Part shown: one piece after another, positions 1-43,170 of the stretch
Layout: every line of letters begins with the position of its first letter
Position numbering within the stretch: the stretch's first letter is position 1
IMG/VR virus record: IMGVR_UViG_3300022188_000007
Span: 80,486 to 144,485 of that record
Source of the DNA: a virus
Length of the DNA: 64,000 bases
Reading direction: 5' to 3' (one strand)
The notes under the pieces: model-generated
The model's input: only the letters and a program-made list of their open reading frames with translations
The model's database searches: none
What the model was told of the DNA's origin: nothing
Position numbers and translations under genes: made by a program

Positions 1-3000
1 GTGGAACAGAGAATACCCCATTAACTGTTTTAAATAATCTATTACCAGAGCTTTTTAGAAATGAAAAACATATGGCTAAAATTGCCATGACATTGCAGGC
101 AGTAAAACCGGAAGCCGGTAAAGATACCGCATCCAGTCAAGCGCTATTAAACGCATTAGCAAAAATGAAGCCGGTAGAAGACCAACCCAGTAGTGGTAGA
201 GAAAAGGCCGTATTTGAAGAAGGTATAAAGACTAAGTTATATGATACTAAAATGACTAATGCTATTAATGCCAACTTTTTTAAACTTAATACCGGACAAG
301 ACACTGAAGCTCTGAATAGGCAGTTGAAGTTATTTGAAAGAAACTTAGGGTACGGTGGCGGAGTTATACGACAGGGTGCTCAATATGAGCCTACTGCTAA
401 TTTAGCAAGTCGTTTTCCCCTAGACCTTAAATCCATGGGCAACACAATGGGGGAAGAACTACATACCATGATGAATGAGTTTTTACGTGTAGGGGTACAG
501 AAAGGGCTGGATGTAAAACATGCTGGAGAGACCCCAATTGCTACTGAAATGGCAAATCTAATATCTAAAGGGTCCCCAGGCGTTTCAAGCTTAATAGAAA
601 AGATAAATGCCGGAGAAGGCTCATACGGCGACCTTACTGATTTTGCAGAGGCAAATAAGAAATCCTTAGGGCGTAGATTAGGTGGTATGTCTACCGAAGA
701 TTTGTATCTTGATGCAGCCAGTATTGCTGGAGGTAGAGGTGAGTCTACTACTAAACTAGATCCAGGTAATAGAGAAGAGCTTAAAGAATACATCACTAAA
801 TCTATAGGATTTGAGGGCTTTCTTCACGAGCTGAGTAATCAAGTAATTGAAGCGGCGCATGAAGGGCTTATGAAGTCAGTTAGTGCTTGGTCCGATACCA
901 AAAAACAAAAAGAATTTAAAGGTAGTTCAGCAGAAGACTATGTAAAGGCTTCTATTAGAAAACAACTTAAGGGTGACGGTATTAATATATTGGATTCAGC
1001 GGAAAGTCCTCTAATGCCTTTATATAAAATGAGGACCTCTGGCGCATCAGGCTATCAACAACGTGGTCTATATCAGGATAAATATGGTGACGTAGAGGCT
1101 CCTGAACTCGAAGGAATCTTCCAAGGCAAAGAGGCTGATGCTTATGCCGCTAAGTATAAGGAAGCTAAAGCAGTAGCTAAAAATATACAGGATGCTCTTA
1201 TAGACTTTAGTTCTAATAAAGGTGGTAATAAGAAAGGCAGTTATTCAATGCTACTTGAAAGCAGTATAGAGAATATCTACGCTGATCAGAAAGAGATTAT
1301 GAAGTTAGTACAGGAAATGACACTTGAGAAAGATAGAACTTCTTCAAGTGTAATGGATAGATTAAGTGGTGACGCACCTATGCATGGTTTTGCCAGGGAA
1401 GCTCTAGGTAAGAAGAACAGTAAAACTCAGAAAGAATTTCTAGAGAAATATAGTAGAATTGTAGGAGTTCCTAGCCTAGGTCAAGAATCCACAGCACTTC
1501 TGAAACAAGAGTATCTTCCTCAGGCAGCTTTCCTAGCTAATGCAGAGAAGGGGCCAGCACCACTTCAAGGTGAAACTACAGACGGAGCATATCAAGATAT
1601 ATTAGATGCCCATGATAAAGCTGTAGATAAGTTAAAAGAACAATATCTAGCGGATGCTATAGTAATAGCTCAAACAGATAATATATTAAAAGCAGCCAAA
1701 ACTAAAACAGGAGAAGCAACCTTTTTAACGCAACTACTCCCCACCTCTAAAGGTGATTATGCTAGTAAATCTTATGATGATCGTAGACAACGTATATCTC
1801 AAATCGCAAAGGAGAAAGTCCAAAGAGCTAATTTTGAACAACTCACTCATCCAAGAGGCTTAGAGAGAGATGCTTTTGGCAGATCAATGCCAAGTGGAGG
1901 AGGTCCAGGAGGTCCAGGAGCACTGAGCGTAGGTGGTACAGGGCCAATTGTGGACGTAAATATTGCTAGTGTTGCTGAAGGTGTAGGCGTCTTCCTAGGA
2001 AGGGCAGCCGGAATGGCCAAGACTACTGAGGATACTAGTCCTAGATTTACAATTTCTGAAGAATTAGAAAAAAAATTAGTAAGGGCTGAGGAGATAGTAG
2101 ATGAGATTACCGGTGGTTTAAATAAGGCTACAGGTGATAGTTTTGCTAATAAATATAGAGCCAGTGGGTTAAAGGGAGGTCAAGGGCTAGACCAAATAAA
2201 TGAAATTAAAAAACAGATGCAGGGCATCAAAGCGGGTAGGAAAGCCCGAGATATTCTAGATTCATCATCTTTACTAGGTACAGGCATTCATGCTAAACTA
2301 GAAGATAGTTATAAGAAGGAGTATATAACAGAGAGACCAGTCAGGTACGACTCAGTAGCTGGAGAAATCTCTGGCACAGTAGATGCAATTAAATATGATG
2401 ATAATGAGATTGCTACTCATATAGTAGATATTAAAACTACAAGTCAAAAGAACTACGACGATTTAAAACAAGCTGTAGCTAGATTCCAAGAAAAAACTGG
2501 TAAAGAAACTCCTACACTAGATGAGATAAAAGACTATGTAGGTAAGAATCTAAAAGATAGTAAATTAGGTGATGTAGCCTCTCAGCTGAATCTATATCTT
2601 GCTGCCACCAGTGAGGATGCTAAAGCATCCGCTCATTTCTATAGTAGAACTAACCCTGATCAAGAACCTATTAAGCTAGACCAGTTTTTTGATAAAGAGC
2701 GGCTAGATAATGATGTTGCTGCGGTAGGTCAAGCTAGAAGGGAGATTAAGTTGGAAGGCGGATCATTCGCTAAAACAGCTTCTTATACTGAAGCCGAAGA
2801 GATAGAAGTTTTACTGAAAAAGAAAGAAGTGGCCGAAGCAACTATAGCTGAATTAATAGCTACCAGTACAGAGTATTATACACTAGTAACAAAGCAGGGT
2901 CTCCGTGCAAGAAAGAATCTACCTTCAACAGGCGGCCTATCTGATAAAAGTTTAAATATGATAGGTACACGTGCTAGAGAATTTCAAGCACAGTCTGTTA

Positions 3001-6000
3001 AATTTGATGATATGGTTACAGCGAATCCTATAGCTGAAGGTCGAGAGACTTATAAAGTGCATCAGAACCTTAATGTGCTGCATGAGCGTGCTAAATATTT
3101 TCAACAAAAAGAGGGTTATGAAACGTCTGGTCCCCGGTTTGATAAAATGCACCCCCAGATCCAAGAAAGAGTAACGGAGCACGGCGAGAAGGGCCCAGGG
3201 GGCGCAGCCTTTAGTGCCCTAGTGACTGAGCTTAAAGATACTGGTAAAATTGAGGGCGGAGAGATTAATGCAGCATGGAAGGCATACAGATTAGCTGTGG
3301 GGGATTACTTTGTTAAAAAGATGGCTGCTGCAAGAAAGGAATTAGATAATACAGACCCAGGGGCTGATAATATAGTAAATGTTTTCGGTGCCTACCAGAA
3401 GTCTGTTCAAGCTTTTCAGGATTTTGCTAAGCATGGTCTAGGCAAACCTACAGATATTTATACTTATAATAAACAGTACTTACATGCAGAATCTGCAAGA
3501 GGGGCCGGAATTTATATGGATTCAGCTGCCCTTCAAAAAAAAGCATCTCAGCCTCTAGGAGAAGACCCCACATTACGTAATATCTTCCAAAATATGACTA
3601 ATCTAGAGGGCGACTCGGTACCAATTCCTAGAGATTCTGTTAGGGCAGCATTGGAAGATTTAATGGATATGGATAGATCATTGATTAATCTTTATACAAA
3701 TGCAGAAAAAGTAGCCCATATGGGCAAAGATATAAATCTAGGATGGAATTTTGATAAAGTAAAAGGCGGATTATCTAGATTAAGAGCAGCCCTAGACTTA
3801 CAACTGAAACAACCAGTAGGTGAGCTTTATAATGAAGATCAGATAACCTATCTTAGAACAGTTTTAAAGGAATTAAAAGGACTGGAGACTATTTATATCA
3901 GCCTAGATCTGGATACAGACTCTTTTAAGAATCCCACAGGTGAATATAAATTCCCGACTTTAGTTCCTGTACCGAAACAATTATCTAGAGACCAGCAGTC
4001 TGCCATGCATTACCAGAATATTGAAAAAATTAAAGGTCATTATAGAACACCAGAGGCAGAAGGTGGGGCCAGGGAAGGGGATTCCTTTGTTTATAATGCT
4101 AAGACTTTCGGGCCTAGCGGTAAACAGATGGATAACCAGAGATTTGTAATTTCTAAATACGGTGAAGCAATAAATAGTGCAGGGAAGTCTGTTCCAATTC
4201 TGAAAAGTAGGCTAGATAACTTAAATAAATCCTTAGTGGACGGTAACAGAACTTTCAGTGTTGCTATAGAGAGAGTAGTTAAATGGGGCGCAGCCGCCAC
4301 ACTAGTTTATGGTGGACTAAGTTATATTAAAGATGCTGTTAAACACATGTCTGATGTTGAGACTGCTATGGCTAGATTACAGATGGTGATGAATCCATTA
4401 ACTACTGATTTCGACTCTCTACAAAAAGCAGCTTTAGGTTTTGCTAAGCAGTATGGTGTGGAGACTACGGATGTTTTAGGTAGTATGAAGGTATTTGCAC
4501 AGCAAGGTTTGAGCCAAGGGGAAGTAGAAGAGAGGACCCAAACTTCTACATTAGCAGCTAATGTTACAACTTTGAGTGCTGTAGACGCTACTGAAGCCTT
4601 AACTGCAGCTATGAAGGTATTTAGAGCCGAGGGTGAGAGTTCTATGAGGTTCTTAGATTCTTGGAGTCAAGTAGAGGCAAGGGCAGCTATTACAGCCGGC
4701 GATTTAGCCGATGCCATAAAAAAATCAGCTTCTGCTGGTAGGAATGCCGGGTTCACTTTTGATGAGTTGAATGGTATGGTAGCTGCTATAGGGTCTACTA
4801 CACGTCAAACAGGTAAAGAGGTAGGTACTTCTTTAAGATTTATCTTCAGACGAATTTCAGCGGATAAAGGACCTAAAGCTCTAAAAGGTGTAGGAGTAGC
4901 AACTACTACACCGAAAGGCACACTCAGACCTGGTTATAAGGTACTTGAGGATTTGGCAGGTAAGTGGGAAGAGTTAGAACAAGCTCAAAAACTAAGTATA
5001 GCCCAGGCTATTGGTGGTACTCGTCAGTACAACCAGGTATTAGTATTGATGGATAACTGGGACCAAGTAGTGAAAAGCACAACCGATAGTATGAATGCTA
5101 AAGGTTCAGCTGAAAGAAGAAACCTTAAGTTGATGAAAACTTATTCTAAGCAATTAGAACAAACTAAAGCAGTCTTTTCTGCGTTAAAAGTAGAAGTAGG
5201 TAAAGTAGTTCTTCCTAGTTTTAAAGCAGGTCTAACCGGTATAAGAGGATTGGTAGAAGCGGTGAATAATGTCCCCGCATCTTTTAAATTAGCTGGAGCC
5301 GGGATGGTGTTATTTGTGGGATATATAACTAAAGGGGCTGAGGCCCTTAATACCATAATGAGCCTAGTAGATAGAACTAAACTTTCTTTTTCAGCCCTAA
5401 AAGATGATTTTTCTAAAGGGATAGATAAAGGGATGTTTGAGGTCTTTGGTAAAGGTACTCCAGAGCTAGATTCAGATTTATTTGGTCTTTCTAAGTTAAG
5501 TGATACTGGTACTGTAAATATTGATGATATGGAAAGCTCTTTAGGTAAGTTAGCTTTCGGGGCTTTATCAGCAGGTCAAGCCTTCAATAAATTCGCAGGC
5601 ATAGTAGGCTCTGACTCTGCGTCTGCAGTTTCTGCAGTCGGTAAATACGTGACAGCCTTTGGCGCTCTAGTAGAAAAAACAGGCACCGGTATATCTTTAA
5701 TACCAGGGATACCTGGTCCAGTAGACGAAGCTGTAGGGGTAGCAACAAGCTTTACAGGCAAAGCAATAAAAGGTACTGGCGGAGCTTTTGATTTTGTAGG
5801 TGATAAGGTGGGTAAAGGGGCCCAGTCCTGGATGGAGGGCTTTGCTTCACAGAATACATCTGCAATGAAATCAATGGCCCCACTTTTAGGTACATTAGGG
5901 GGGATAGCTTTATTAGCCCCAACAATAATAGACGCATTCAAAAACTTAACTCAATCTGCAACAGACTATAAAGATGAGCAGTTAAATAGGTTGGAGGTAG

Positions 6001-9000
6001 ATGCTAAGGAGATTGATTCTCTACAGGGATTAATTACTTCATATAAAAATTTACAAGATCAGAAAGAGAAGATAACTAGATTATCAGACCCAAAGGTTCA
6101 GGCTAAGGGTATAAAACGTGGCGAATATAAAAGCCCTATCTTGGAAAAGATTGACGCTTTAAAGGCTACTAGAACATTTGATTCTAACTTAGGCGCTATG
6201 GACCCTAGCATGATAGCAGGTTTCGATGAGTTTGGCCGTGTAATATTAAGTAATACAGCTAATCTAACAGGATATCTAGAGGAATTAAAAAGAGCCAAGA
6301 CTGTCACACTAGCCTTATCTAAACTTAAAATAGCAGCCCGTTTTACAGACGATCTTACTGAGACGGGGGGCAATCAAGAATGGAAGCAGCAGGTTAAATC
6401 ACTTGCAGCCGAATTCCCATTAATTGGTGAAATGTTGGCTAAGAATATCACTGTAGGGCCTAAGAAAGCACTAGAAGTTATAAGAGAAGAGCTAGATCAA
6501 CTTTTAGCGGCTAAAGCAGAAGCCCCTATGTCTACGGCATTTGATTCAGACATAGAGAGATCATTAACAGCACATGCTAAAGTATTAAAAACTTTCAGTG
6601 CTACATATGCAGAACTAGGTAAAACCTTAAGTAGTATAAGTACTGAAGGTGCTACTGTAACTGATATCGCGGATCTATATAAATCACCAGACGCATTGAA
6701 GACGTTTGATCTTCAGGCCGCATATGAAGATAAATACCAGATTGCTGAAGTAAGGGGAACTGTTAGTGGTAGAGACATCGCAGCATCTAAAGTATTAAGA
6801 ACTCAATCAAGTGGACTGGGTTCTTATATAGAAGCGTCTAGTGTTCTTACTGAAGCTAATTTATTTTCGGCAGGACGATTACCTAGGAAACCCAAGAAAG
6901 ATGGCACTATAGGTGCATCAGATAATGACCTTGTTACACTTAATAAAAACTTTGCAGAGAAATATGGTATTGCTACAGGCCAAGCTACTTTGAAAATAGG
7001 TAAAGACCATAAGTTATTCTTAGAATTTATAGACGCACTCACAACAACCCCGACTACTAAAGAGTTTTCACAAGCAGAAATTGAAGCAGCAGCAAGAGCT
7101 TTTTTCCCTGTTGATGAGATATTACAAAAGGCCCAAATAAGTGTAACTAAGCTTAATACTTTTGTAGCTGGAGCGTCAGCAGGTATATTAGGGGTATCTG
7201 AAAAAAAATTAAATACACGTCAGTTTGATTTAGGTGAACGCTTCTACGATCAAATTCCTACTAATGTATTATTACAGACTGAAAAAGGTTACAATACAAA
7301 AACAGGTACTTTTGGAAAACAGGACTATAAAGAAGATTATAGTTCAGACTTTATTGATAAGTATTATGATCCCCTACAAAAGTATAACACAGCCAAATCT
7401 GCCTTAGGGGGAGACAACGCCTCATTGGACGCCTCAGTATTAGGAGGTCTGGCCGAACAACTTCGAGGCCTACAAGATATTTTAAAAAACAATTCAATAG
7501 CTTTTCAATATAGAGCAGCAATAGAGGATTTAAATAAAGCACTGTATGAGGGGGCTAGAGCCACAAGGAAAAGTATACTTGTAGAACAAGAAAGGCAAAA
7601 AGTTGATAAACATACTGCTGGGTTTATGCGCGGTAAAACTAAAGGCGTGGCTTCTATTGATCAGGGGGTTACTAACTATAAAGATTTAAATGATCAGCAA
7701 AGAGCCTCGTTAATGTTTAAAGATTATGATGCCCTAGCAAAGAAAATTCTTGTACAAGAGACTAGTATTGAAGGCTTAATAGGCCAGTCTAAGTCAGTTG
7801 CAAGCACCTATGCGGATATCCAAGAGATAGGTAAAGCTCCTGAAGGTTTTGATGCAATAATGACTAGGGGCCGTAATGTTGAGTTAATGAGTATTATGGA
7901 TAAAGTAGATAACGATAAGGGGGCTGCTCAAATTTCAATGAGAGTTTCGGAACTGAAGTCTCCTTTAGAGGGTATTTTAGCGAACACCGACATAATGGCC
8001 GCCAATACCTATGGAAGACCAGGGGATATTAAAAGAGCTGCAGCTACTGCAGAAGAGAACTTAGTTATAGCCGAACAAAGGAAGCTTGCAGGTAAAGGCC
8101 CATTGGATAATACTGTTGACAATAAAACTGATCCAGTGAAAACATTCAAAAGTCTTCAGAAACTAATGACCATCAGAGACGCCGCCGCAAAGGAAGGAGA
8201 TACTGTTACTGTACGTGCACTGGACAATACACTTGCTGATTCTTATGGTAGGGCTTTGAAAGTATATGGTATGAAGGATTTTGCTAGGTTAACTAAACTA
8301 GTTGCTCCTACCAAGTTTTTTTCTTCCAATAACAAGGAATTAGTGGCATCAAGGGCATCCGCTTTAGCACAAAAAGGTATAGGTACAACTCCAGACAGAA
8401 TGATGCAATCTATAGAGTCTGCTAAGATGGCAAAAGCCGCCCTAAGGACTCAGAGCTTTATTGATAAGTTAACTGCCTTTAAAGCCCCTGAGAAAGAGAT
8501 CGAGCGTGCAAAGAATAGGCAGTGGTATGTACCTTCTAAAGAAGTAAGGGACTATGAAAAAGCCTACGCAACAGATCCCAGTAAACCACTAATAAATCCT
8601 AAAATATTTGAGAAGGCTCTAATCGCTGGAGCAATACTTCCTGCTTTTCAGGGGAAATCTTTGGGTGAGAAGAGAACTACTATAGAAGATCAAATAAACA
8701 GGTTACAGAAACAAAAAGATAATTACCCTAAGGAAGGTAAAGAGGCTGAAAAGCTAGGGATTGATAAAAAAATAGAAGGCTATCAAAAGATATTAACGGA
8801 TGATTTAGATCCTCAACAATTTGTAACTTCCACTTTACAAGGGCTATCAACAACAGCACTTGCTGCATACGAAGGGGTGGGAATATTCGGAGGCTCCCAG
8901 TCTGATAAAGAAAATATGGCTGCCGTAGGTGCAGGTCTTTTTGTTATAATGAAATCACTAGAGTCTAGAATAGGTAAAGACAATATGCCACAATATTTCA

Positions 9001-12000
9001 AGGACTTTTCTAAAGAAGCAGTGGATAAGATTAAGATCGCGGTTGAAACAGGAGATTACTCTGATATGGCCAATGATCTAGGTAAAAAAACCAAAAAGTT
9101 TTTAAAGGGTTTTAATAAGTCCATGGAAGCTCAAACCGAAAAGGCGGAAGACGCAGGCATTGACCCTGAGAAAGACATTAGAGAACGTCGTAAAAGACTA
9201 AAAAAGTTAAATGCTACCCTGGATCTGGAGAGTACTACTAAGTCTCTTAATGAGGTCACTGATGTAGGGAGCAACAATTTGTTGAGAGGGTTAGAAGCCA
9301 TAGCAGTTGTAATGACTGCGCAAGCAGTTGGGGGCTGGAAATCTAAAAAAGGGGAAACAGCAGCCAGAGTCAAGGATGGTGTAAACGTAGCTAAACAACA
9401 AGGTCTAGCTTCTTTAGCTTACTCTGAAAAGAATGCTGCAGCCGTAGATGCCTACATAGGAAAGCTTGTACTGACCCAAAAGGAGTTGGCAGAGAAGAAA
9501 GGTCCTGATGGCGGAGCAATTAATATAGTTATGGATGTTATGGAGGACTTTAAAACTAGTTTAACATTGGCTGCTGCCGAAGGTAAAACACTTGAGGAAG
9601 CAATGTCAGGGCTTCAAGATAAAATAGGTGACACTAAAGTTTTTACCGGTATTTACACAGATGTGGCTAAATTAATAGGAGCTATGGAGAACTTTAGAGC
9701 AGAACTTCAAAAATCATTTACAACTTTTGATGATAAACGTTTATTAGATCCTACACGTTCTTTAAAGGGAGAGTTATTGGGTTTTGGGGGCGAGACAACT
9801 CTTCCAATAGGTAGACGTGACATGTCGACTCAACAAAGAGCTTACGCAGGTGGGTCAGACTCCTTAAGGTCATCCTTTGCAGTAATGTCTAAAGGGATTT
9901 TGATACAAGAGGCCCAAATAAAAACTTTAGGTTTTGTTAGATCTCAGATAGCTGACACTGAACAAAATATAGATTTTGGTACCAAATATGGAACATCTGA
10001 TTCACAATTAGAAGCTTGGGAGATGCACTTAAAGGGGCTTGAAGGCACTCTGGCTAACTTACAAAACGTGACTACTTTAACTAGCCAACAGTTGCAGGCG
10101 TTGGGTACTTCTATGCGAGGGGCTATTAAGTACTCAGAGGCTATCAACAAATTAAATGATGCTTTGGCAGATGTTTCTGTGGAGCACGCTGTAACTGGTA
10201 TAACAGGATTAAAAACTTATTTTGATTCTTTTGAGGTGTTGCTAGGTGGCTCAGATCCGTTAGCCGCCCAACCTGTTTCACCAGAACAAGAAAGAATGGG
10301 AGCTAAGGTAGGAGTAAGATTAGTTTCTGGTGAATCAACCTCTATGGATATAGAACGTGCCCAGTTACTCACAGAGATAAAGAATGCCACAGACTCTAAA
10401 TCTAGAACTGCTGCTAGTATAAAACTAGGAGATCTTGATGAGAAGTATAGAAGGTTAGGTATTGATAAAGAACAACAAGTCGAGAACCAGCGGCTTGGTT
10501 CTACTATGAAGCCTTATGAGGATTTTTACCGTAATATGGAAGGGTTGTTAGGAAGTAATGAATTAAATGATAAACAATATGGAGAAATTAGTGGCGTTAA
10601 AAATGAATTTAAAGAAGCCATGAAAAGAGCTACGGAAAAAATACCTATAGATGAGGCAATAGCTCAGCTGGAAGGGCAAAAAGACAACTTAGGGGCTAAT
10701 CAATTCAAGGAAGCCATGAAAGAATTAGTGGCAATGAAAGCAACAGGGACTACACAAGTATATAGAGGTATGGATAGAACCAAAGACTGGCAAGGTATTA
10801 TGAGTAGAGTCATGGCAGGTTATGATAAAGAAATAGATGCATACAAGGCTGCAACCGGTACTACTGATTTAGATACTTCTTTAGAAAACATGGTAACTAA
10901 CCCACTAGTAAATGTTATTGGGATGTCTAATCTACTTCTAGCTGAATTAGTGACACACTTTGTAGACAAAAAAACTGCGGCAGACATACTCAATGGGCCT
11001 CAAAAAAAAGAGTTAGAACCAGATTACTTATTTTCTTCAATAGTCCCTGATAAAAAAGTTGTATTAGCAGAAGCACAAGATTTTCTGAAAGGCATTAGTA
11101 TTAATCCTGCGGACAATTTAAAAACACAGCCATATGATTTCAATAACGACAATATTGATCCAAATAGAGGCCGCCCTACATTGTTTGGTAGACCTGTAGG
11201 TCCAATAAGTAAAGATGCGCTTGGGTTGCCTCCAATACAAGATAAGGTAGTACCTCCACCTCCAACAGAGGTCGAATTAGCTGCTAAAAAGCATCCTAGG
11301 TTTAAGGAAATGGAGACTTACGTGAAAAATATAAGCCTTGATCCTATAGCTAATTTAAAAACAGAGCCATTTGGCCCTAATTCTGAGCAAGACAATTCAC
11401 AAATTGTAGCTGTAAATGAACTTCAGTTAGTAACTCTAAAAAAAATAGCTACCAGTCTTAGCAGTAATGGTTCTGGTGATTCCACTGAACCTACTACTAA
11501 AGCCGCAGGCGGAAGAATCTTTGGAGAAGGTGGTCCAAGAGAAGATAAGGTACCCGCTTATTTAAGTCCAGGAGAGTTTGTAATAAGAGCAGCTGCTGCA
11601 CAACGGCTTGGTTATGAGAATCTAGATGTAATGAATAAGAAAGGGCAGGTCCCTGTGGCTTTTGAGAGTGGGGGCTCCTTAAACCAGAGGCACATAACAC
11701 AAGCACATCAGTATTTTGTAGATCCTGATGCGGTACTGCCCCCAGAGTTTAATCCAGAGTCAGAGCTATATAATAAAGGAATAACAGGTAAATATATTGA
11801 TTTACGGAAGTCAATGCTTTCTGAAGAACAGCGGGAAGCTGTTGCAGGTATCTCCACATTAAAGGGATTATATAATACTTTTTCTGATATGGCTGGTAAT
11901 GATGAGGATAAATTAAATTCTTTATTTCCTGAAGATATAATGCCTGTAATGGAGCGTTTCGAAGAGAACAAAAAAGCCCAAGAAGAGAAAGGTATATTGG

Positions 12001-15000
12001 GTTGGATGAAAGGAAAATTAAAAACCAAAAATAAGGCAACAGCAGGTGCAAGGGCAGTTACAGGCCTTGATAAGGCCGAGTTATTAAAAGAAATAAGTAC
12101 CTATGCTGACGGTGGCCGAACCATTAGTACTGTTACTGGTAAACCTATACCCACAGCAGAGGAAACAGAAGAGGGTATGGCAAAGATGCGAGAAGCTTTA
12201 GGTTTTGTAGCTTCTGTAGGTCACCCAATTACTTCTATCCCCACCTCTATCTATGGCATGTATCAAGGTTTTAAAGAAAAAGGTCTTAGTGCCCAACCAG
12301 CTGTTGAAGGTTTTGGGGGCTTAGAACTATTAAATTATATACCACAGGCTAAAAGACTCGGTAAAATGAAAACAATTTTAAGTAAAGGTTTTGGTAGATA
12401 TTTTGATAACGCAGGGGACGTGAATGATTATTTTGATATTACTGGTAAGTTAGGGGGTAAACTAACTTCATCACACGGAGATGATTTTGACGCGTTACTA
12501 GCTTCCGAGAATACTTTTGAGGAGGGCGGCTTATCTCTTTGGGATAAATTACTGGGTAAACAGTTCGATCCTACAGAGAGATGGAAGGGTAAAAAGTTAC
12601 CATCAGGTATGGGAAAATTTGATAAACCTGAGGTGACAAAAAAATTAGAAGACGAAATAAAAGCTACAAAACGCCATGATGTTCATTCTTTTAGTTTCCT
12701 ACGCGAAAAACATGGTTTTGTGAAAGCATTACAACTTTATGGTGCAGGATCTCGTTTACAAGAAGGGGCAGATATATTAAAGAAGGCTGATGGTGGTAAG
12801 ATAAGAAGTTTTATAGGTGATTCCACAGGAGTAGCAGAGGTAGGAGAAGAGTTATTTAATGAAAGAATCAATGCCCCTGTACTAACTCGGTCTGTGGCCA
12901 GTATGATTAAATCAGAGTTTGGCACCTCAGACGTAGGTAACAATCAATTAGGTGCGCCAGTAGATAAATTAATGGGCACTTCGTTTGATCCATCTGCTAC
13001 CATGTTAAAAGATAGTAGAGCTTTTACAGCTGTTGGTAATAATATAAAATCATATGCTTCTACAGCCGATTTTAATACCGGTAGAGCGAAGTCTGATAAA
13101 TTGAAGGGCAATATAGGTAAAGGTAATATAATCCCAGGTATGGATGGATTAACCTCTATATATGATGGATTCTTAACTTCCAAATACAATAGCCCCTTCT
13201 TATCGCAAGAAGAGCAATCCAACAATAGGGCTTGGTATGAAGCCACTAGAGAGCAAGAGATAACCAATAAACAGAAATATGAATTATTAGGTGATGCAAA
13301 AACAGACGCAGATAGGAAACAGCTTACTGACTACTGGCAGTCTGTGGGTAAGGCTGCTCCAAGTAAGTTTGCTGATGGAGGGAATGTCGATGAAGAAGAG
13401 CCTGTGATTGAGTGGGGACATACTACTGCTAAAGCTGTCATGGATAAATGGACAGCGGAAGCTAAAGATGCGGCTATGTATAGATCGTTACATGCTATGT
13501 CTAGTGCTGAAGATTTTGCATTAAAATTGGATAGAAATAAAAAAGCTAGAACCGACATGACCAGAATTCTAGCTGATAACGAATACTTAGATAAAGACAC
13601 CCAAGAAGGGTATGATTATTCATTTGATAAACACCGAGGATTAAGAATACTTACTGATGAAGATTCGGGGGTGAAGGTAGGTAGAGTAATTACTAAGTCA
13701 TATCGTTCTGTAGATGAAAGTTATAGACCTAGATCTATGGCAACTGTTAAGAAACAAGTACATGACCCATTTGCTATATCCGAAGATGCTTATTCTTCTG
13801 GCGCGCTTACTGATTTCTCCGAGAGATTATCTCTAGACAGTAACTATGGTAATGAGGCTTTTAGGTACCACGGTGAGGGCCGTGATATATGGAAGAATAT
13901 GCAACGCTATAAGAAATTATTTTATGGCTCTCCGGGTGAAAGTAAAGCATCTGAAGGGTATTTAGCAAAATTTCAAGCAGGCCAAAAGAACCTTGATAAA
14001 GTACGTTTAGTGATGAAGGTTTTAGAAGAAGGTGGTAATATTTATGATGACTCCAGACTTCAACAGAAAGTGGGCGGACCAGCTAGGTTAGAGGCTTTTG
14101 ATTTTGGAGGTAAGAAAGGTACTGTAGATATACCTACTAGAAATTTCAAAAGAGCTGAACTACTTAAAGAATTACAAGCGTTATATGGGGATGAATCTCA
14201 AGGGGCCATCATTAGTGCTGAGAGGATAAAGAATGAAATCTCCGCTTTAAACGCGCAGAAAATAGAAACTTCTGATGGTACAGTGGAATACATAAGGGCA
14301 GATGAACAGAAATATACGTCTGTTTTACAGGATATTAAAGACGCCGCCGTAATTGCACGAGGTGAGTTAGATCCTAAAGGCAAAAATGCAAGAAGACGGG
14401 CTGTTACAAGAGCTCAGTCCCCTCTATTATATAATTATTCTAATACGCTACGGGACAAAGAATTGGCAAGAGCAGGGTTCCTAAAGCAGACTGGCCCACC
14501 GAAAGATTTTTCCGACTTCGATAAAAAAGATATTCCAGATATGAAAAAATGGCTGGCTGCTGGAGATTATGGCTATGTAACTAGTGACACAGTGCAACGA
14601 ATGAAGGACTTTATTACGAGTGAGACATACAATGTGGGTGGTGTAGCTACTAGATCTATGCCAGTTAAACATTTTGGCGGTGTGGTAACACAAACTGGCC
14701 CAGTATTTGCTCAGAAAGGTGAATACATTATACCTAAAGGATTTAAAGATGGTACTTCGGGTTTGGGTGGTGTAACCTCCAGTCCAGCTTCCCAAGCTTT
14801 AACTTCAGGATCGATGAGATTAGATGGTTCTGAGGTATTATCACAATTAAATAGTTTAAGTTTAAAGGTGGATAATACTACGGTTAAGGTAGACACTACT
14901 GAGGCAGCAAGTAGACTATCATCTTCTATTAGTGATGCTTTTAGTGGTATAGAACCATTTAAAGTAGAAGATAAAACTCTATTAGTAGAAGATAAGGTTT

Positions 15001-15788
15001 TCTCAGTAGAAGATAAAAAGTTAACTGTGGAAGATAAAACTTTTACTATTGAAGATAAAACTTTTAAGGTAGAGGATAAAATTTTCTCAGTAGAAGATAA
15101 AAAGTTAACTGTGGAAGATAAAACTTTTACTATTGAAGATAAAACTTTTAAGGTAGAGGATAAAATTTTCTCAGTGGAAGACAAAAAATTAACCGTGGAA
15201 GACAAGGTTTTTACTATTGAGGATAAGGTTTTTAAGGTAGAGGATAAAATTTTCTCAGTGGAAGACAAAAAATTAACCGTGGAAGACAAGGTTTTTACTA
15301 TTGAGGATAAGGTTTTTAAGGTAGAGGATAAAGTACTAACAATAGATGCTTCTAATATTTCAGTAGATATCGGCGATGCAGAGGCTAGATTAGCTTCAGC
15401 GATTAGCAATGCGATTAGTAGTGCGGTAGTTAATATAAAAGTTGAGGCCCCTACTACTGGAGGGTCAGTCGGCGCGGATAAATTCGATCAGTTAGCCCAA
15501 ACAGTATCAGATGTAAACGATAAACTTATAAGTAGTTCTGTGATTATGGAGAGTAGAGTGAAGATTTTAGAAGGGGGTATAGACTTAGTTGTGGATGAAA
15601 GCGTGGAAAAAAAACTAGCTTCTAAATTGATGAGTATTAATGAAAGTGTAACAGGGGCTCTCTTGAGTGTAGATACTGTAGCTAATAATGTAACCACTCA
15701 AATAGATAGTATAAGACGTGAGTCTAACGAAATAAAATATCTAGCACATATGGCTTTAAATGCTAGAGGTTCAGGAAATATAACTTAA
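1..15788 (+). CDS. Giant multidomain tail tape-measure protein (5'-truncated, >5,260 aa)
   Basis: The frame of the 72..15788 ORF stays open back to base 3 (GTENTPLTVLNNLLPELFRNEKHM) and has no SD before ATG 72, so the true start lies upstream of the window. It has a TP901-type core, hydrophobic helices (FKLAGAGMVLFVGYI, MAPLLGTLGGIALLAPTII), a helical Ala/Lys/Glu-rich composition, typical C-terminal TMP motifs and a position just before hub-like genes. Confidence 0.9.
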   Translation, partial: GTENTPLTVLNNLLPELFRNEKHMAKIAMTLQAVKPEAGKDTASSQALLNALAKMKPVEDQPSSGREKAVFEEGIKTKLYDTKMTNAINANFFKLNTGQDTEALNRQLKLFERNLGYGGGVIRQGAQYEPTANLASRFPLDLKSMGNTMGEELHTMMNEFLRVGVQKGLDVKHAGETPIATEMANLISKGSPGVSSLIEKINAGEGSYGDLTDFAEANKKSLGRRLGGMSTEDLYLDAASIAGGRGESTTKLDPGNREELKEYITKSIGFEGFLHELSNQVIEAAHEGLMKSVSAWSDTKKQKEFKGSSAEDYVKASIRKQLKGDGINILDSAESPLMPLYKMRTSGASGYQQRGLYQDKYGDVEAPELEGIFQGKEADAYAAKYKEAKAVAKNIQDALIDFSSNKGGNKKGSYSMLLESSIENIYADQKEIMKLVQEMTLEKDRTSSSVMDRLSGDAPMHGFAREALGKKNSKTQKEFLEKYSRIVGVPSLGQESTALLKQEYLPQAAFLANAEKGPAPLQGETTDGAYQDILDAHDKAVDKLKEQYLADAIVIAQTDNILKAAKTKTGEATFLTQLLPTSKGDYASKSYDDRRQRISQIAKEKVQRANFEQLTHPRGLERDAFGRSMPSGGGPGGPGALSVGGTGPIVDVNIASVAEGVGVFLGRAAGMAKTTEDTSPRFTISEELEKKLVRAEEIVDEITGGLNKATGDSFANKYRASGLKGGQGLDQINEIKKQMQGIKAGRKARDILDSSSLLGTGIHAKLEDSYKKEYITERPVRYDSVAGEISGTVDAIKYDDNEIATHIVDIKTTSQKNYDDLKQAVARFQEKTGKETPTLDEIKDYVGKNLKDSKLGDVASQLNLYLAATSEDAKASAHFYSRTNPDQEPIKLDQFFDKERLDNDVAAVGQARREIKLEGGSFAKTASYTEAEEIEVLLKKKEVAEATIAELIATSTEYYTLVTKQGLRARKNLPSTGGLSDKSLNMIGTRAREFQAQSVKFDDMVTANPIAEGRETYKVHQNLNVLHERAKYFQQKEGYETSGPRFDKMHPQIQERVTEHGEKGPGGAAFSALVTELKDTGKIEGGEINAAWKAYRLAVGDYFVKKMAAARKELDNTDPGADNIVNVFGAYQKSVQAFQDFAKHGLGKPTDIYTYNKQYLHAESARGAGIYMDSAALQKKASQPLGEDPTLRNIFQNMTNLEGDSVPIPRDSVRAALEDLMDMDRSLINLYTNAEKVAHMGKDINLGWNFDKVKGGLSRLRAALDLQLKQPVGELYNEDQITYLRTVLKELKGLETIYISLDLDTDSFKNPTGEYKFPTLVPVPKQLSRDQQSAMHYQNIEKIKGHYRTPEAEGGAREGDSFVYNAKTFGPSGKQMDNQRFVISKYGEAINSAGKSVPILKSRLDNLNKSLVDGNRTFSVAIERVVKWGAAATLVYGGLSYIKDAVKHMSDVETAMARLQMVMNPLTTDFDSLQKAALGFAKQYGVETTDVLGSMKVFAQQGLSQGEVEERTQTSTLAANVTTLSAVDATEALTAAMKVFRAEGESSMRFLDSWSQVEARAAITAGDLADAIKKSASAGRNAGFTFDELNGMVAAIGSTTRQTGKEVGTSLRFIFRRISADKGPKALKGVGVATTTPKGTLRPGYKVLEDLAGKWEELEQAQKLSIAQAIGGTRQYNQVLVLMDNWDQVVKSTTDSMNAKGSAERRNLKLMKTYSKQLEQTKAVFSALKVEVGKVVLPSFKAGLTGIRGLVEAVNNVPASFKLAGAGMVLFVGYITKGAEALNTIMSLVDRTKLSFSALKDDFSKGIDKGMFEVFGKGTPELDSDLFGLSKLSDTGTVNIDDMESSLGKLAFGALSAGQAFNKFAGIVGSDSASAVSAVGKYVTAFGALVEKTGTGISLIPGIPGPVDEAVGVATSFTGKAIKGTGGAFDFVGDKVGKGAQSWMEGFASQNTSAMKSMAPLLGTLGGIALLAPTIIDAFKNLTQSATDYKDEQLNRLEVDAKEIDSLQGLITSYKNLQDQKEKITRLSDPKVQAKGIKRGEYKSPILEKIDALKATRTFDSNLGAMDPSMIAGFDEFGRVILSNTANLTGYLEELKRAKTVTLALSKLKIAARFTDDLTETGGNQEWKQQVKSLAAEFPLIGEMLAKNITVGPKKALEVIREELDQLLAAKAEAPMSTAFDSDIERSLTAHAKVLKTFSATYAELGKTLSSISTEGATVTDIADLYKSPDALKTFDLQAAYEDKYQIAEVRGTVSGRDIAASKVLRTQSSGLGSYIEASSVLTEANLFSAGRLPRKPKKDGTIGASDNDLVTLNKNFAEKYGIATGQATLKIGKDHKLFLEFIDALTTTPTTKEFSQAEIEAAARAFFPVDEILQKAQISVTKLNTFVAGASAGILGVSEKKLNTRQFDLGERFYDQIPTNVLLQTEKGYNTKTGTFGKQDYKEDYSSDFIDKYYDPLQKYNTAKSALGGDNASLDASVLGGLAEQLRGLQDILKNNSIAFQYRAAIEDLNKALYEGARATRKSILVEQERQKVDKHTAGFMRGKTKGVASIDQGVTNYKDLNDQQRASLMFKDYDALAKKILVQETSIEGLIGQSKSVASTYADIQEIGKAPEGFDAIMTRGRNVELMSIMDKVDNDKGAAQISMRVSELKSPLEGILANTDIMAANTYGRPGDIKRAAATAEENLVIAEQRKLAGKGPLDNTVDNKTDPVKTFKSLQKLMTIRDAAAKEGDTVTVRALDNTLADSYGRALKVYGMKDFARLTKLVAPTKFFSSNNKELVASRASALAQKGIGTTPDRMMQSIESAKMAKAALRTQSFIDKLTAFKAPEKEIERAKNRQWYVPSKEVRDYEKAYATDPSKPLINPKIFEKALIAGAILPAFQGKSLGEKRTTIEDQINRLQKQKDNYPKEGKEAEKLGIDKKIEGYQKILTDDLDPQQFVTSTLQGLSTTALAAYEGVGIFGGSQSDKENMAAVGAGLFVIMKSLESRIGKDNMPQYFKDFSKEAVDKIKIAVETGDYSDMANDLGKKTKKFLKGFNKSMEAQTEKAEDAGIDPEKDIRERRKRLKKLNATLDLESTTKSLNEVTDVGSNNLLRGLEAIAVVMTAQAVGGWKSKKGETAARVKDGVNVAKQQGLASLAYSEKNAAAVDAYIGKLVLTQKELAEKKGPDGGAINIVMDVMEDFKTSLTLAAAEGKTLEEAMSGLQDKIGDTKVFTGIYTDVAKLIGAMENFRAELQKSFTTFDDKRLLDPTRSLKGELLGFGGETTLPIGRRDMSTQQRAYAGGSDSLRSSFAVMSKGILIQEAQIKTLGFVRSQIADTEQNIDFGTKYGTSDSQLEAWEMHLKGLEGTLANLQNVTTLTSQQLQALGTSMRGAIKYSEAINKLNDALADVSVEHAVTGITGLKTYFDSFEVLLGGSDPLAAQPVSPEQERMGAKVGVRLVSGESTSMDIERAQLLTEIKNATDSKSRTAASIKLGDLDEKYRRLGIDKEQQVENQRLGSTMKPYEDFYRNMEGLLGSNELNDKQYGEISGVKNEFKEAMKRATEKIPIDEAIAQLEGQKDNLGANQFKEAMKELVAMKATGTTQVYRGMDRTKDWQGIMSRVMAGYDKEIDAYKAATGTTDLDTSLENMVTNPLVNVIGMSNLLLAELVTHFVDKKTAADILNGPQKKELEPDYLFSSIVPDKKVVLAEAQDFLKGISINPADNLKTQPYDFNNDNIDPNRGRPTLFGRPVGPISKDALGLPPIQDKVVPPPPTEVELAAKKHPRFKEMETYVKNISLDPIANLKTEPFGPNSEQDNSQIVAVNELQLVTLKKIATSLSSNGSGDSTEPTTKAAGGRIFGEGGPREDKVPAYLSPGEFVIRAAAAQRLGYENLDVMNKKGQVPVAFESGGSLNQRHITQAHQYFVDPDAVLPPEFNPESELYNKGITGKYIDLRKSMLSEEQREAVAGISTLKGLYNTFSDMAGNDEDKLNSLFPEDIMPVMERFEENKKAQEEKGILGWMKGKLKTKNKATAGARAVTGLDKAELLKEISTYADGGRTISTVTGKPIPTAEETEEGMAKMREALGFVASVGHPITSIPTSIYGMYQGFKEKGLSAQPAVEGFGGLELLNYIPQAKRLGKMKTILSKGFGRYFDNAGDVNDYFDITGKLGGKLTSSHGDDFDALLASENTFEEGGLSLWDKLLGKQFDPTERWKGKKLPSGMGKFDKPEVTKKLEDEIKATKRHDVHSFSFLREKHGFVKALQLYGAGSRLQEGADILKKADGGKIRSFIGDSTGVAEVGEELFNERINAPVLTRSVASMIKSEFGTSDVGNNQLGAPVDKLMGTSFDPSATMLKDSRAFTAVGNNIKSYASTADFNTGRAKSDKLKGNIGKGNIIPGMDGLTSIYDGFLTSKYNSPFLSQEEQSNNRAWYEATREQEITNKQKYELLGDAKTDADRKQLTDYWQSVGKAAPSKFADGGNVDEEEPVIEWGHTTAKAVMDKWTAEAKDAAMYRSLHAMSSAEDFALKLDRNKKARTDMTRILADNEYLDKDTQEGYDYSFDKHRGLRILTDEDSGVKVGRVITKSYRSVDESYRPRSMATVKKQVHDPFAISEDAYSSGALTDFSERLSLDSNYGNEAFRYHGEGRDIWKNMQRYKKLFYGSPGESKASEGYLAKFQAGQKNLDKVRLVMKVLEEGGNIYDDSRLQQKVGGPARLEAFDFGGKKGTVDIPTRNFKRAELLKELQALYGDESQGAIISAERIKNEISALNAQKIETSDGTVEYIRADEQKYTSVLQDIKDAAVIARGELDPKGKNARRRAVTRAQSPLLYNYSNTLRDKELARAGFLKQTGPPKDFSDFDKKDIPDMKKWLAAGDYGYVTSDTVQRMKDFITSETYNVGGVATRSMPVKHFGGVVTQTGPVFAQKGEYIIPKGFKDGTSGLGGVTSSPASQALTSGSMRLDGSEVLSQLNSLSLKVDNTTVKVDTTEAASRLSSSISDAFSGIEPFKVEDKTLLVEDKVFSVEDKKLTVEDKTFTIEDKTFKVEDKIFSVEDKKLTVEDKTFTIEDKTFKVEDKIFSVEDKKLTVEDKVFTIEDKVFKVEDKIFSVEDKKLTVEDKVFTIEDKVFKVEDKVLTIDASNISVDIGDAEARLASAISNAISSAVVNIKVEAPTTGGSVGADKFDQLAQTVSDVNDKLISSSVIMESRVKILEGGIDLVVDESVEKKLASKLMSINESVTGALLSVDTVANNVTTQIDSIRRESNEIKYLAHMALNARGSGNIT
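2154..2750 (+). other. PD-(D/E)xK (Cas4/RecB-like) nuclease domain within the tape-measure protein
   Basis: Motifs occur in the expected order: YRASGL (2154), GTGIH (2277), TE, SGTVD (2373), IVDIKT (2427), QLNLY (2583). This matches the G-x-x-x-H / E / G-x-x-D / D-x-K / Q-x-x-x-Y signature. No Fe-S cysteines are present. Confidence 0.8.
4260..5250 (+). other. Tape-measure core domain (TP901/PhageMin_Tail-like)
   Basis: The stretch AIERVVKWGAAATLVYGG...DVETAMARLQMVM...AKQYG...FAQQG...AANV...ATEALTAAM...DLADAIKKSASAGRNAGFTFDELNGMVAAIGSTTRQTGKEVGTSLRFIF...SIAQAIGGTRQYN is characteristic of this family. Confidence 0.9.
14955..15332 (+). repeat. In-frame tandem repeat: 18 x 21 bp (xxx[VI]EDK heptads) with an 84-bp higher-order period
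   Basis: The protein reads PFKVEDK TLLVEDK VFSVEDK KLTVEDK TFTIEDK TFKVEDK IFSVEDK KLTVEDK... The four-heptad block FSVEDK/KLTVEDK/xFTIEDK/xFKVEDK repeats four times with near-identical DNA. Confidence 0.97.
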
Positions 15789-42765: not shown

Positions 42766-43170
42766 ATGATGGATTTAATTTGTTCTAAATGTGATAGTGA
42801 GCTTTATGAAAATTCTATAGCCACTACTTTTGAATACAATAAGGACATAAAGGTATTAATGTCGGAAGCGGGCGAGTTAGTTATTAAAAATGCTCCTAGA
42901 TATATGATATTCGCTTGTAATAAATGTGGTTTTACACGGAAAATTTTTTTTGAAGATTATTTTGCTTCTAGACAAGCAGTGGCTTTAAAAACTTTAGGTA
43001 AAATGCGTTCTGATTCTTGTGTACGTACATTAGATCATTCTGTAAAATATAGTGAGGATAGCGGTTTAACTTTTTGCGGCCTCTGTCCTGGTTTGTTTGA
43101 TGGTGATGGAATGTGTACTAATGATGTAATAGCTGGCTGTTCTGTAAGGAGACATCTCCTTGAAGACTAA
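42766..43170 (+). CDS. Zinc-finger-like protein (134 aa)
   Basis: CSKC, CNKC and CGLC plus additional Cys. SD aaggag. Confidence 0.75.
   Translation: MMDLICSKCDSELYENSIATTFEYNKDIKVLMSEAGELVIKNAPRYMIFACNKCGFTRKIFFEDYFASRQAVALKTLGKMRSDSCVRTLDHSVKYSEDSGLTFCGLCPGLFDGDGMCTNDVIAGCSVRRHLLED

Follow-up and report, generated by a model that had tools for sequence, protein, structure and literature searches.

A predicted cellular-type RNA polymerase module inside a giant phage tape measure protein

In Thermus phage P23-45, a two-barrel RNA polymerase (RNAP) and a tail tape measure are joined in one polypeptide, gp96, such that the phage seems to inject its own transcription enzyme with its tail ruler (Chaban et al., 2024, Nat Commun; PMC10770324). 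In gp96, which is present in the virion, the RNAP is N-terminal, about 1,100 aa long, flat and clamp-less, with a short connector of about 67 residues between the barrels, and it groups with the phage/QDE-1 clade. Together with three close relatives, this is the only tape-measure-fused polymerase described in the papers we could search. Other phage-encoded enzymes are organized differently. The virion and non-virion RNAPs of jumbo phages such as phiKZ and AR9 are cellular-like beta/beta-prime homologues that are split into 4-5 separate polypeptides and packaged in the head. [quoted passage not shown]

Here, we describe an RNAP-like module within a tape measure protein (TMP) of an uncultured jumbo phage. 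The window we analyzed is a 64,000-nucleotide stretch (positions 80,486 to 144,485) of IMG/VR virus record IMGVR_UViG_3300022188_000007. An initial annotation of this sequence had noted possible bridge-helix and trigger-loop motifs and proposed that the open reading frame (ORF) continues upstream into a virion RNAP whose DxDGD motif lies outside the window. Both motifs are present: frame 3 of the window reads ...NANFFKLNTGQDTEALNRQLKLFERN... and ...RVGVQKGLDVKHAGETP..., with F of FFKLNTG at window 276, Q at 498 and H at 519. The ORF does continue upstream, as a single uninterrupted frame of 7,820 codons (genome 72811-96270) in which the window starts at codon 2559, and the predicted motif exists as NLDFDGDQIQLH at aa 2450-2461. 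The proposal is supported, with two corrections. The RNAP is not at the front of the protein, as had been suggested, but lies about 900-1,300 residues in and about 1,050 residues before the tape-measure core, and its best structural matches are cellular-type beta/beta-prime enzymes and not YonO, crAss or QDE-1-type ones. The features are listed in Table 1.

Table 1. Features of the giant ORF that lie within the window (all on the + strand; aa numbering is that of the 7,820-codon ORF)
Window position	Protein position (aa)	Feature	Basis
3..15788 (+)		C-terminal 5,261 codons (plus stop) of the 7,820-codon ORF, which starts upstream at genome 72811; the likely start is a TTG at codon 20, which gives 7,801 aa	ORF analysis; JGI gene call of 7,801 aa
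3..1265 (+)	module about 1860-2980	Part of the predicted beta-prime-like RNAP module inside the window; the catalytic DFDGD (aa 2452-2456) is 321-307 bases upstream of window base 1	AlphaFold2 model; VIA-align, model 60..1180 against E. coli beta-prime 23..1355, Z 12.9-13.3; unbiased PDB search
198..347 (+)	2625-2674	50-residue helix, candidate bridge helix; its N-terminal half (aa 2642-2650) touches the beta-like part in the co-fold	DSSP helix 825-874 of the model; interface residues 842-850; alignment to archaeal subunit A' ends at model residue 867 / chain residue 824
276..326 (+)	2651-2667	Candidate bridge-helix motif FFKLNTGQDTEALNRQL; family consensus AQLFK(I/L)(H/N)TGxxTEAxxR	5th most conserved 12-residue window
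447..566 (+)	2708-2747	Helix-loop-helix, candidate trigger loop; the tip has low confidence	Helices 908-928 and 939-947 of the model; pLDDT below 50 at 931-934
498..527 (+)	2725-2734	Candidate trigger-loop motif QKGLDVKHAG; family consensus NExxRFxxQKGMDVKHAG; the His is L or K in 4 of the aligned sequences	3rd most conserved 12-residue window
2271..2465 (+)	3316-3380	Weak match to a Cas4/RecB-type nuclease family, between the RNAP and the tape-measure core	phrog_1706, E 0.0013; homologous segment in 15 of the 45 giant homologues searched
4329..6074 (+)	4002-4583	Tape-measure core; the Pfam PhageMin_Tail match covers window 4422-5018	PF10145, E 2.1e-27, 96.7 bits against a cut-off of 33.2, full profile 1-201; phrog_4211, E 6.2e-77, plus seven further TMP PHROGs
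5874..5939 (+)	4517-4538	The only strongly hydrophobic segment of the protein; possible membrane-insertion segment of the TMP	Kyte-Doolittle scan

By sequence alone, the two motifs are not above chance. Although the Q-x6-H-x-G spacing of the trigger loop is present, 0.24 occurrences of the bare pattern are expected in this protein and 2 are found, and an ungapped scan of the whole protein with the E. coli bridge-helix and trigger-loop peptides neither places its best hits here nor beats shuffled controls. What lifts the motifs above chance is their context. They lie 200 and 273 residues downstream of a nearly invariant DFDGD in the same frame and, in an alignment of 35 homologous segments of aa 1801-3000, the five most conserved windows are the DFDGD loop, RFPxTG..IQP, the trigger-loop motif, FNRKMPAVMGKA and the bridge-helix motif. 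In the ungapped scan, the DFDGD segment is the only E. coli motif clearly above the null (47 against a maximum of 30), and hhalign aligns NLDFDGDQIQLH... to E. coli NADFDGDQMAVH..., although in this comparison with RpoC only the 27 columns around DFDGD were aligned. The segment shares DFDGDQ(I/M)xxH with cellular largest subunits.

Position, fold and conservation carry the assignment. An AlphaFold2 model of aa 1801-3000 (pLDDT 79.9, pTM 0.70) was compared with the PDB. Nearly all top Foldseek hits are RNAP largest subunits, but the E-values are weak (2e-3 to 3e-2). In a second look with VIA-align, E. coli beta-prime scored Z 13.3 (rmsd 5.3-7.7 Å, 316-337 residues aligned), with rows at Z 12.9-13.2 spanning model 58..1181 against beta-prime 23..1356. 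In an unbiased VIA-align search of 48,161 chains, ranks 1-11 are all RNAP largest subunits (Z 13.0-10.2), including Pol I (Z 13.0), archaeal A' (Z 12.3 at 18% identity), Pol II, plastid, vaccinia, Pol III, M. tuberculosis and ASFV enzymes. Designed and VCP double-psi beta-barrel (DPBB) domains align to model 393-664 at Z 7.7-8.8 and rmsd 2.5-2.8 Å, although the DFDGD loop itself has pLDDT below 50. In the model, the first motif lies in the C-terminal half of the 50-residue helix, the candidate bridge helix, and the second at the tip of the helix-loop-helix, the candidate trigger loop, both downstream of the Mg-binding DFDGD loop of the barrel. These two labels rest on a predicted structure and on the first and last aligned residues only, and the spacing between the two elements (34 residues) is much shorter than the roughly 100 in bacterial beta-prime.

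No curated model reaches its threshold. Pfam RNA_pol_Rpb1_2 hits the DFDGD segment below its cut-off (17.3 and 20.7 bits against 25.3), Rpb1_1 and Rpb1_5 give no match in the contig at E up to 10, and Rpb2_6 also finds nothing in the contig. Searches of PDB sequences with aa 1801-3000, with its 35-row profile and with a profile of the beta-like region found no polymerase, and a search of the viral fold library BFVD gave only weak, mixed rows, among them the phi14:2 protein (E 0.054, probability 0.13).

Directly upstream, with no linker, there is probably a beta-like module (about aa 900-1855) that carries the two-lysine motif GxKxxxRxGxKGV. This motif, GRKFTTRYGSKGV at aa 1484-1496, lies about 970 aa upstream and is the best match in the whole protein to E. 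coli GDKMAGRHGNKGV, with identical spacing, but its score of 32 falls within the null range (median 24, maximum 33). It is nearly invariant in the family. The co-fold of aa 1281-1800 with aa 2301-2780 scores 0.77 against a best control of 0.00, a mark reached by 58 of 80 solved complexes and 2 of 110 mismatched pairs; the three runs agree in at least 60% of contacts, the partner's pLDDT is 70-72 and the interface includes the candidate bridge helix. However, this pass may reflect likeness to solved RNAPs. An AlphaFold2 model of aa 1001-2000 was poor (pLDDT 53) and its Foldseek matches are meaningless, hhalign against E. coli RpoB found nothing, an HMM of the region gave nothing against RpoB, RpoC, gp96 and gp64, a Pfam scan of 15 homologues gave no RNAP family, and the ESM Atlas returned only TMP-named clusters at 0.85, which is uninformative. 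Another stretch, RISSHGIAKRG (aa 1650), precedes the DFDGD barrel, which argues against its being bridge-helix-like, as does an earlier annotation equating it with the beta motif PVDIVLNPLGVPSRM; by sequence it is not above chance either way.

A bona fide tape-measure core follows at aa 4033, and JGI names a homologue a TP901 family TMP. Neighboring genes gave no tail-tube or chaperone matches and almost no PHROG or Pfam matches, apart from one downstream ORF that matches a tail-protein PHROG. No tail-sheath family was found, but the contig is only about 55% of the genome. Although a search for related loci with the single protein found no relatives, degenerate DNA patterns identified homologues, and at least 46 protein clusters (at 50% identity) of 6,400-8,000 aa share the same order, each representative having 0-4 Cys. 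DFDGD is present in 45 of the 46 giant representatives and the beta-like motif with both lysines in 42 of 46. There was no match among 50,697 GenBank phage records. Only two short MAG-binned contigs turned up, which we do not take as evidence of the host.

P23-45 gp96 is the most likely functional analogue. In both proteins a two-barrel RNAP with a DFDGD loop, here probable for the second barrel, lies on the N-terminal side of the TMP core, and both chains are cysteine-free (0 Cys in 5,002 aa and 0 in 7,820 aa, against about 100 expected in the latter). However, there is no detectable sequence or profile similarity: hhalign of the family profile against gp96 residues 1-1200 gives a probability of 0.6% and aligns no RNAP segment, and a family HMM against gp96 and gp64 gives nothing. 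The module described here is internal, spans about 2,000 aa and has about 950 residues between the beta-like motif and DFDGD. In the predicted structure, it aligns with the whole of beta-prime, model residues 60-390 matching the clamp-bearing N terminus. The phage is a jumbo phage, not an 84-kb Thermus phage. Compared with cellular beta-prime, Rpb1, A190 and archaeal A', the order of a candidate beta-like two-lysine motif followed by beta-prime-like elements resembles a fused rpoB-rpoC, as in the natural beta-beta-prime fusions of some bacteria, but identity is 11-18% in structural alignments, the regions between the DPBB and the candidate bridge helix and between that helix and the candidate trigger loop are much shorter, the module is embedded in a presumed virion protein and no alpha or omega partners are known. 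The jumbo-phage multisubunit enzymes are structural matches (7ogp_A, Z 9.3; 7s00_d, Z 9.2), but this single chain scores higher against cellular enzymes than against them. QDE-1 scores only Z 8.6 and RDR2 Z 9.3.

How might such a protein function? We consider it likely, though not established, that the two motifs belong to a beta-prime-like large-subunit module within a single 7,801/7,820-residue TMP, probably as part of a beta-beta-prime fusion of the cellular type followed by a nuclease-like domain and the tape-measure core. By analogy with gp96, we infer that the protein is built into the tail and expelled into the host at infection, with its N-terminal half leaving last, just ahead of the DNA, after which the polymerase refolds and transcribes the first phage genes independently of the host enzyme. 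The complete absence of cysteine fits a chain that must travel unfolded and refold. There is no evidence here for packaging, injection or activity, and a bulky clamp-bearing polymerase is harder to pass through a tail than the flat, clamp-less gp96.

It is also possible, although we think it unlikely, that the giant ORF is a polyprotein from which the polymerase and the nuclease are cut off during or after translation to act in the infected cell, with only the C-terminal part built into the tail. The bulk of the module and its separation from the TMP core by about 1,000 residues would be consistent with this, and since no other RNAP, sigma factor or T7-type RNAP was found in the 144-kb fragment (the T7-type search having no positive control), this could be the phage's only polymerase. 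However, the fused polymerase of gp96, the only studied case, is in the virion, the whole chain including the RNAP part lacks cysteine, which is expected for a translocated protein and not for a cytoplasmic enzyme, no protease domain or cleavage motif was found in the ORF, and the fusion is kept in 46 diverged clusters. A similarly doubtful alternative is that the module is an RNAP-derived domain that no longer transcribes DNA, serving instead as a structural plug or motor of the tail or in another nucleic-acid activity, such as primer synthesis, RNA-dependent synthesis or pulling DNA into the cell without making functional RNA. Its extreme divergence from all curated RNAP models, the compressed regions flanking the candidate bridge helix, the replacement of the trigger-loop His in some members and the presence of QDE-1 and RDR2 among the structural matches could be read this way. 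Yet the elements that matter for catalysis are exactly those kept, the five most conserved windows all being active-site elements or candidates for them, and cellular-type DNA-dependent enzymes score well above the RNA-dependent ones (Z 13 against 8.6-9.3). That the motifs are merely chance resemblances in a region unrelated to RNAP is very improbable, since despite their weak sequence matches it is contradicted by the colinear fold, as well as by the in-frame DFDGD and the conservation of the family.

More tentatively, one can envision that a complete, cellular-type beta-beta-prime RNAP of about 2,000 residues, together with a nuclease, is threaded as an unfolded, cysteine-free chain through a tail that may exceed 1 micrometre and refolds in the host as the phage's pioneer transcription machine. 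The fusion would have arisen independently of that in P23-45, and fusing a polymerase to the tape measure would be a recurrent solution in huge phages. Further, more distant giant ORFs with the same internal LDFDGDxIxxH motif exist in IMG/VR.

Whereas the gp96 polymerase is a minimal, flat enzyme thought to be shaped for passage through the tail, this family would show the same strategy with a full-size, clamp-bearing, cellular-like beta/beta-prime enzyme, raising the question of how a chain of about 860 kDa leaves a tail and refolds into a working polymerase. Published motif filters for viral two-barrel RNAPs would narrowly miss it, as the RxP-to-DxDxD spacing is 101 residues against an allowed maximum of 100. 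The protein would also provide a natural single-chain beta-beta-prime RNAP. It predicts either a very long tail or a large non-measuring cargo segment, and it suggests that these jumbo phages are independent of host transcription from the first moment of infection.

The window covers bases 80486-144485 of a 144,485-bp IMG/VR virus record that CheckV rates about 55% complete. The ORF that runs off its 5′ end is part of one uninterrupted frame of 7,820 codons, in which a TTG at codon 20, preceded by AGGGGGG, gives the 7,801-aa product called by JGI. As the identical protein is also present on a 318,366-bp ENA contig, the source is a jumbo phage. Residue numbers used here count from the first codon after the upstream stop, and 19 should be subtracted for numbering from the TTG start. 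Although the initial annotation placed two possible RNA polymerase (RNAP) motifs at the front of the tape measure, they lie in the first half of the protein, not at its front. Coordinates of these and other features are collected in the table.

Positions of features of the giant ORF and of related loci
Feature	Window position	Genome or locus position	Residues (aa)	AF2 model residues
Giant ORF (7,820 codons)	3-15788	72811-96270		
GFNVIAELRNTASTFEDQIVIS, beta-like resemblance			1353	
Beta-like two-lysine motif, GRKFTTRYGSKGV			1484-1496	
PIDIRISSHGIAKRG, beta-like resemblance			1646	
RxP strand motif (RFP)			2348-2350	
RxP motif to DFDGD	upstream of the window	L002:7042-7368	2348-2456	
Segment containing DFDGD, NLDFDGDQIQLH	321 bases upstream of the window		2450-2461	
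Region fitted by isolated double-psi beta-barrels				393-664
Region of the two motifs	270-530		2649-2735	
First motif, F	276			
Second motif, Q	498			
Second motif, H	519			
50-residue helix, candidate bridge helix			2625-2674	825-874
Helix-loop-helix, candidate trigger loop			2708-2747	908-947
Tip of the hairpin				931-934
Weak Cas4/RecB-type hit (phrog_1706)	2271-2465		3316-3380	
Start of tape-measure PHROG matches			4002	
PhageMin_Tail match			4033-4231	
Strongly hydrophobic segment			4517-4538	
1,863-aa ORF	37139-42730			
3,391-aa ORF	43160-53335			
Volactin-like actin homologue (PF25216) and hybrid sensor histidine kinase	upstream of the window, same contig	L050:16182-17360; L049:15252-18140; L051:16497-18720		
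Family member with one in-frame stop		L034:519-3143		
More distant giant ORFs in other IMG/VR contigs		L010:3039-3398; L030:4803-5138; L033:8101-8574; L028; L027; L007		

Frame 3 reads NANFFKLNTGQDTEALNRQLKLFERN and RVGVQKGLDVKHAGETP, confirming that both motifs are present. As bare patterns, however, they are weak. The spacing Q-x6-H-x-G is expected 0.24 times in this protein and occurs twice. When the E. coli bridge-helix and trigger-loop peptides were slid along all 7,820 residues, the best ungapped matches were elsewhere and were no better than in shuffled sequences. The caution in the initial annotation that the evidence consisted of only two short motifs was thus justified. By sequence alone these motifs prove nothing.

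The initial annotation also predicted that a DxDGD motif would be found upstream, and such a motif exists. The same frame reads NLDFDGDQIQLH, against E. coli beta-prime NADFDGDQMAVH. This is the only E. coli motif that clearly beats the null in the ungapped scan (score 47 against a null maximum of 30) and the only segment that hhalign aligns to RpoC. It also gives a Pfam RNA_pol_Rpb1_2 hit, although this is below threshold (17.3 and 20.7 bits against a cut-off of 25.3).

An exhaustive HMMER search with aa 1801-3000 found 100 cluster representatives, 74 of them at E up to 1e-30, most of which are proteins of 6,400-8,000 aa. Among the 46 representatives of at least 6,000 aa, the same elements occur in the same order: a beta-like two-lysine motif (42 of 46), DFDGD about 900-1,020 residues later (45 of 46), the first motif about 155-200 residues after that, the second motif about 55-80 residues further on, and a tape-measure core 1,220-1,900 residues after DFDGD. 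In a 35-row alignment of the region, the five most conserved 12-residue windows are, in order, the DFDGD loop, RFPVTGVASIQP, VQKGLDVKHAGE (the candidate trigger-loop motif), FNRKMPAVMGKA and NFFKLNTGQDTE (the candidate bridge-helix motif). Both motifs are therefore conserved in homologues, although the His is L or K in four aligned sequences. One family member (locus L034) has a single in-frame stop inside the polymerase region, which could be due to a sequencing error, a pseudogene or a recoded stop. Other IMG/VR contigs of up to 545 kb carry very long ORFs (at least 3,050 to at least 4,643 aa) with the same LDFDGDxIxxH motif 700-2,000 residues from their start. These resemble the family only around the motif (E 1e-5 to 1e-10). 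They may be further families of polymerases embedded in giant proteins. Two short contigs binned into MAGs, one of Gammaproteobacteria and one of Woesearchaeota, consist largely of this gene (33% and 69% identity), but these are probably mis-binned phage DNA and not evidence as to the host.

AlphaFold2 (AF2) on the alignment of aa 1801-3000 gave a usable model (pLDDT 79.9, pTM 0.70). Although Foldseek against the PDB gave no hit at E up to 1e-3, almost every one of the top 49 rows is an RNAP largest subunit. VIA-align on those candidates gave Z 13.3 for E. coli beta-prime (rmsd 5.3-7.7 Å, 316-337 residues), with many rows spanning model 60..1180 against beta-prime 23..1355 and 492 chains scoring Z of 8 or more. 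In an unbiased comparison with 48,161 representative chains, RNAP largest subunits occupied ranks 1-11; these include human Pol I (Z 13.0), Sulfolobus A′ (Z 12.3, 18% identity), Pol II, S. pombe Pol I, plastid, vaccinia, Pol IV, Pol III, M. tuberculosis, Pol V and ASFV. Below them come helical bundles at Z 10 or less, phiKZ and AR9 subunits (Z 9.3 and 9.2), RDR2 (9.3) and QDE-1 (8.6). Isolated double-psi beta-barrels fit the model at rmsd 2.5-2.8 Å. Although helical models can reach Z of about 13 by chance, here the whole top of the list is one protein family aligned end to end, which is not what a chance helical match looks like. We take homology to beta-prime/Rpb1 as established at the level that a predicted model allows.

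In the model, the DFDGD strand is followed by a set of short helices and then by a single 50-residue helix, the C-terminal half of which is occupied by the first motif. A helix-loop-helix follows, which carries QKGLDVKHAG at the end of its first helix and has a tip with pLDDT below 50. This is the layout of a bridge helix followed by a trigger loop. Consistent with this reading, the distance from the end of the hairpin to the end of the aligned region (about 230 residues) is close to that in E. coli beta-prime (about 205). In addition, the alignment to archaeal A′, a subunit that appears to end just after the bridge helix, ends inside the long helix (model 867 against chain 824), and residues 842-850 of the helix touch the beta-like part in a co-fold. 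However, as only the first and last aligned residues are known and the spacing between the two elements (34 residues) is far shorter than the spacing from bridge helix to trigger loop in bacteria, this reading is weakened, and both elements remain candidates.

Upstream of the beta-prime-like module, the protein reads GRKFTTRYGSKGV, with the same spacing as E. coli beta GDKMAGRHGNKGV, including both lysines. Although this is the best match to that peptide in the whole protein and is almost invariant in the family, its score (32) lies within the range of shuffled controls (median 24, maximum 33), making it suggestive rather than significant. Other beta-like resemblances, including GFNVIAELRNTASTFEDQIVIS and PIDIRISSHGIAKRG, are not above chance by sequence. 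The AF2 model of aa 1001-2000 failed (pLDDT 53), and Pfam and PDB profile searches were blank. A co-fold of aa 1281-1800 with aa 2301-2780 scored 0.77 against a best control of 0.00, a mark reached by 58 of 80 solved complexes and 2 of 110 mismatched pairs; the three runs agree in at least 60% of contacts, and the partner's pLDDT is 70-72. Because solved RNAPs resemble this pair, the result may derive from memorized structures and shows likeness, not binding. We therefore consider the beta-like module probable. If it is real, the chain is a beta-beta-prime fusion, since the beta-prime-like alignment begins only about 40 residues after the last beta-like motif.

In the remainder of the protein, Pfam PhageMin_Tail matches over its full length (96.7 bits), and eight tape-measure PHROGs match (best E 6.2e-77). 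The protein contains only one strongly hydrophobic segment. A weak Cas4/RecB-type hit (phrog_1706, "CRISPR/Cas system associated", E 0.0013) lies between the polymerase and the tape-measure core; as a homologous segment is present in only 15 of the 45 giant homologues searched, this domain is optional in the family. The protein has no cysteine, whereas about 100 would be expected from the other ORFs of the contig (1.29% Cys). The 46 giant homologues have 0-4 cysteines each, and gp96 of Thermus phage P23-45 has none in 5,002 aa. By contrast, two further very large ORFs downstream in the tail region, of 1,863 and 3,391 aa, are cysteine-rich (39 and 33 Cys); the 1,863-aa ORF has no PHROG match. 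Upstream of the window, the phage encodes a volactin-like actin homologue (PF25216, E 8e-58) and a hybrid sensor histidine kinase with PAS and receiver domains.

A fusion of polymerase and tape measure is known from P23-45, in which the N terminus of the 5,002-aa tape measure gp96 is a two-barrel RNAP with 779-DFDGD-783 that is present in virions and transcribes pre-early genes (Chaban et al., 2024, PMC10770324). The gp96 polymerase is flat and clamp-less, which these authors suggest allows passage through the tail, and is closest to the phage's second RNAP within the phage/QDE-1 clade. We found no other tape-measure-polymerase fusion in our literature searches, and a jumbo-phage review does not mention one. 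The family described here has no detectable similarity to gp96, is internal rather than N-terminal, is about twice as long, with about 950 residues between the beta-like motif and DFDGD, and aligns with the whole of beta-prime, including the clamp-bearing N terminus. It has no tblastn match in 50,697 GenBank phage records. The spacing between its RxP motif and DFDGD is 101 residues, with a helical hairpin inserted in the barrel, which is one residue more than allowed by the [RK]xPx{20,100}DxDxD filter used in the survey of viral two-barrel RNAPs in that paper.

How might such a protein function? One polypeptide holds both the beta-prime-like module and the tape-measure core, and the catalytic loop and the candidate bridge helix and trigger loop are under strong conservation. 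We infer that the protein sits in the tail with its C terminus at the tip, as established for siphophage tape measures, and leaves tip-first, so that the polymerase half enters last, just ahead of the DNA. It would then refold, helped by having no cysteines, and transcribe the first genes, as proposed for gp96. If the whole chain measures at about 1.5-1.6 Å per residue (the gp96 ratio), the tail would be about 1.2 μm, while if only the part from aa 4000 measures, it would be about 0.6 μm. It is also possible that the ORF encodes a polyprotein whose polymerase is released in the cell, although the cysteine-free state of the whole chain argues against this, or that the module is a polymerase-derived domain with another role, although conservation of every catalytic element argues against such a role. 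Neither possibility is excluded.

Our findings confirm the presence of the two motifs and support the inference that the ORF may contain an RNA polymerase fused to the tape measure, including the specific prediction of an upstream DxDGD motif. While gp96 provides a precedent for such a fusion, the predicted polymerase described here is of the cellular type, is probably beta-beta-prime-fused, and is embedded in the tape measure of a widespread, uncultured jumbo-phage family.
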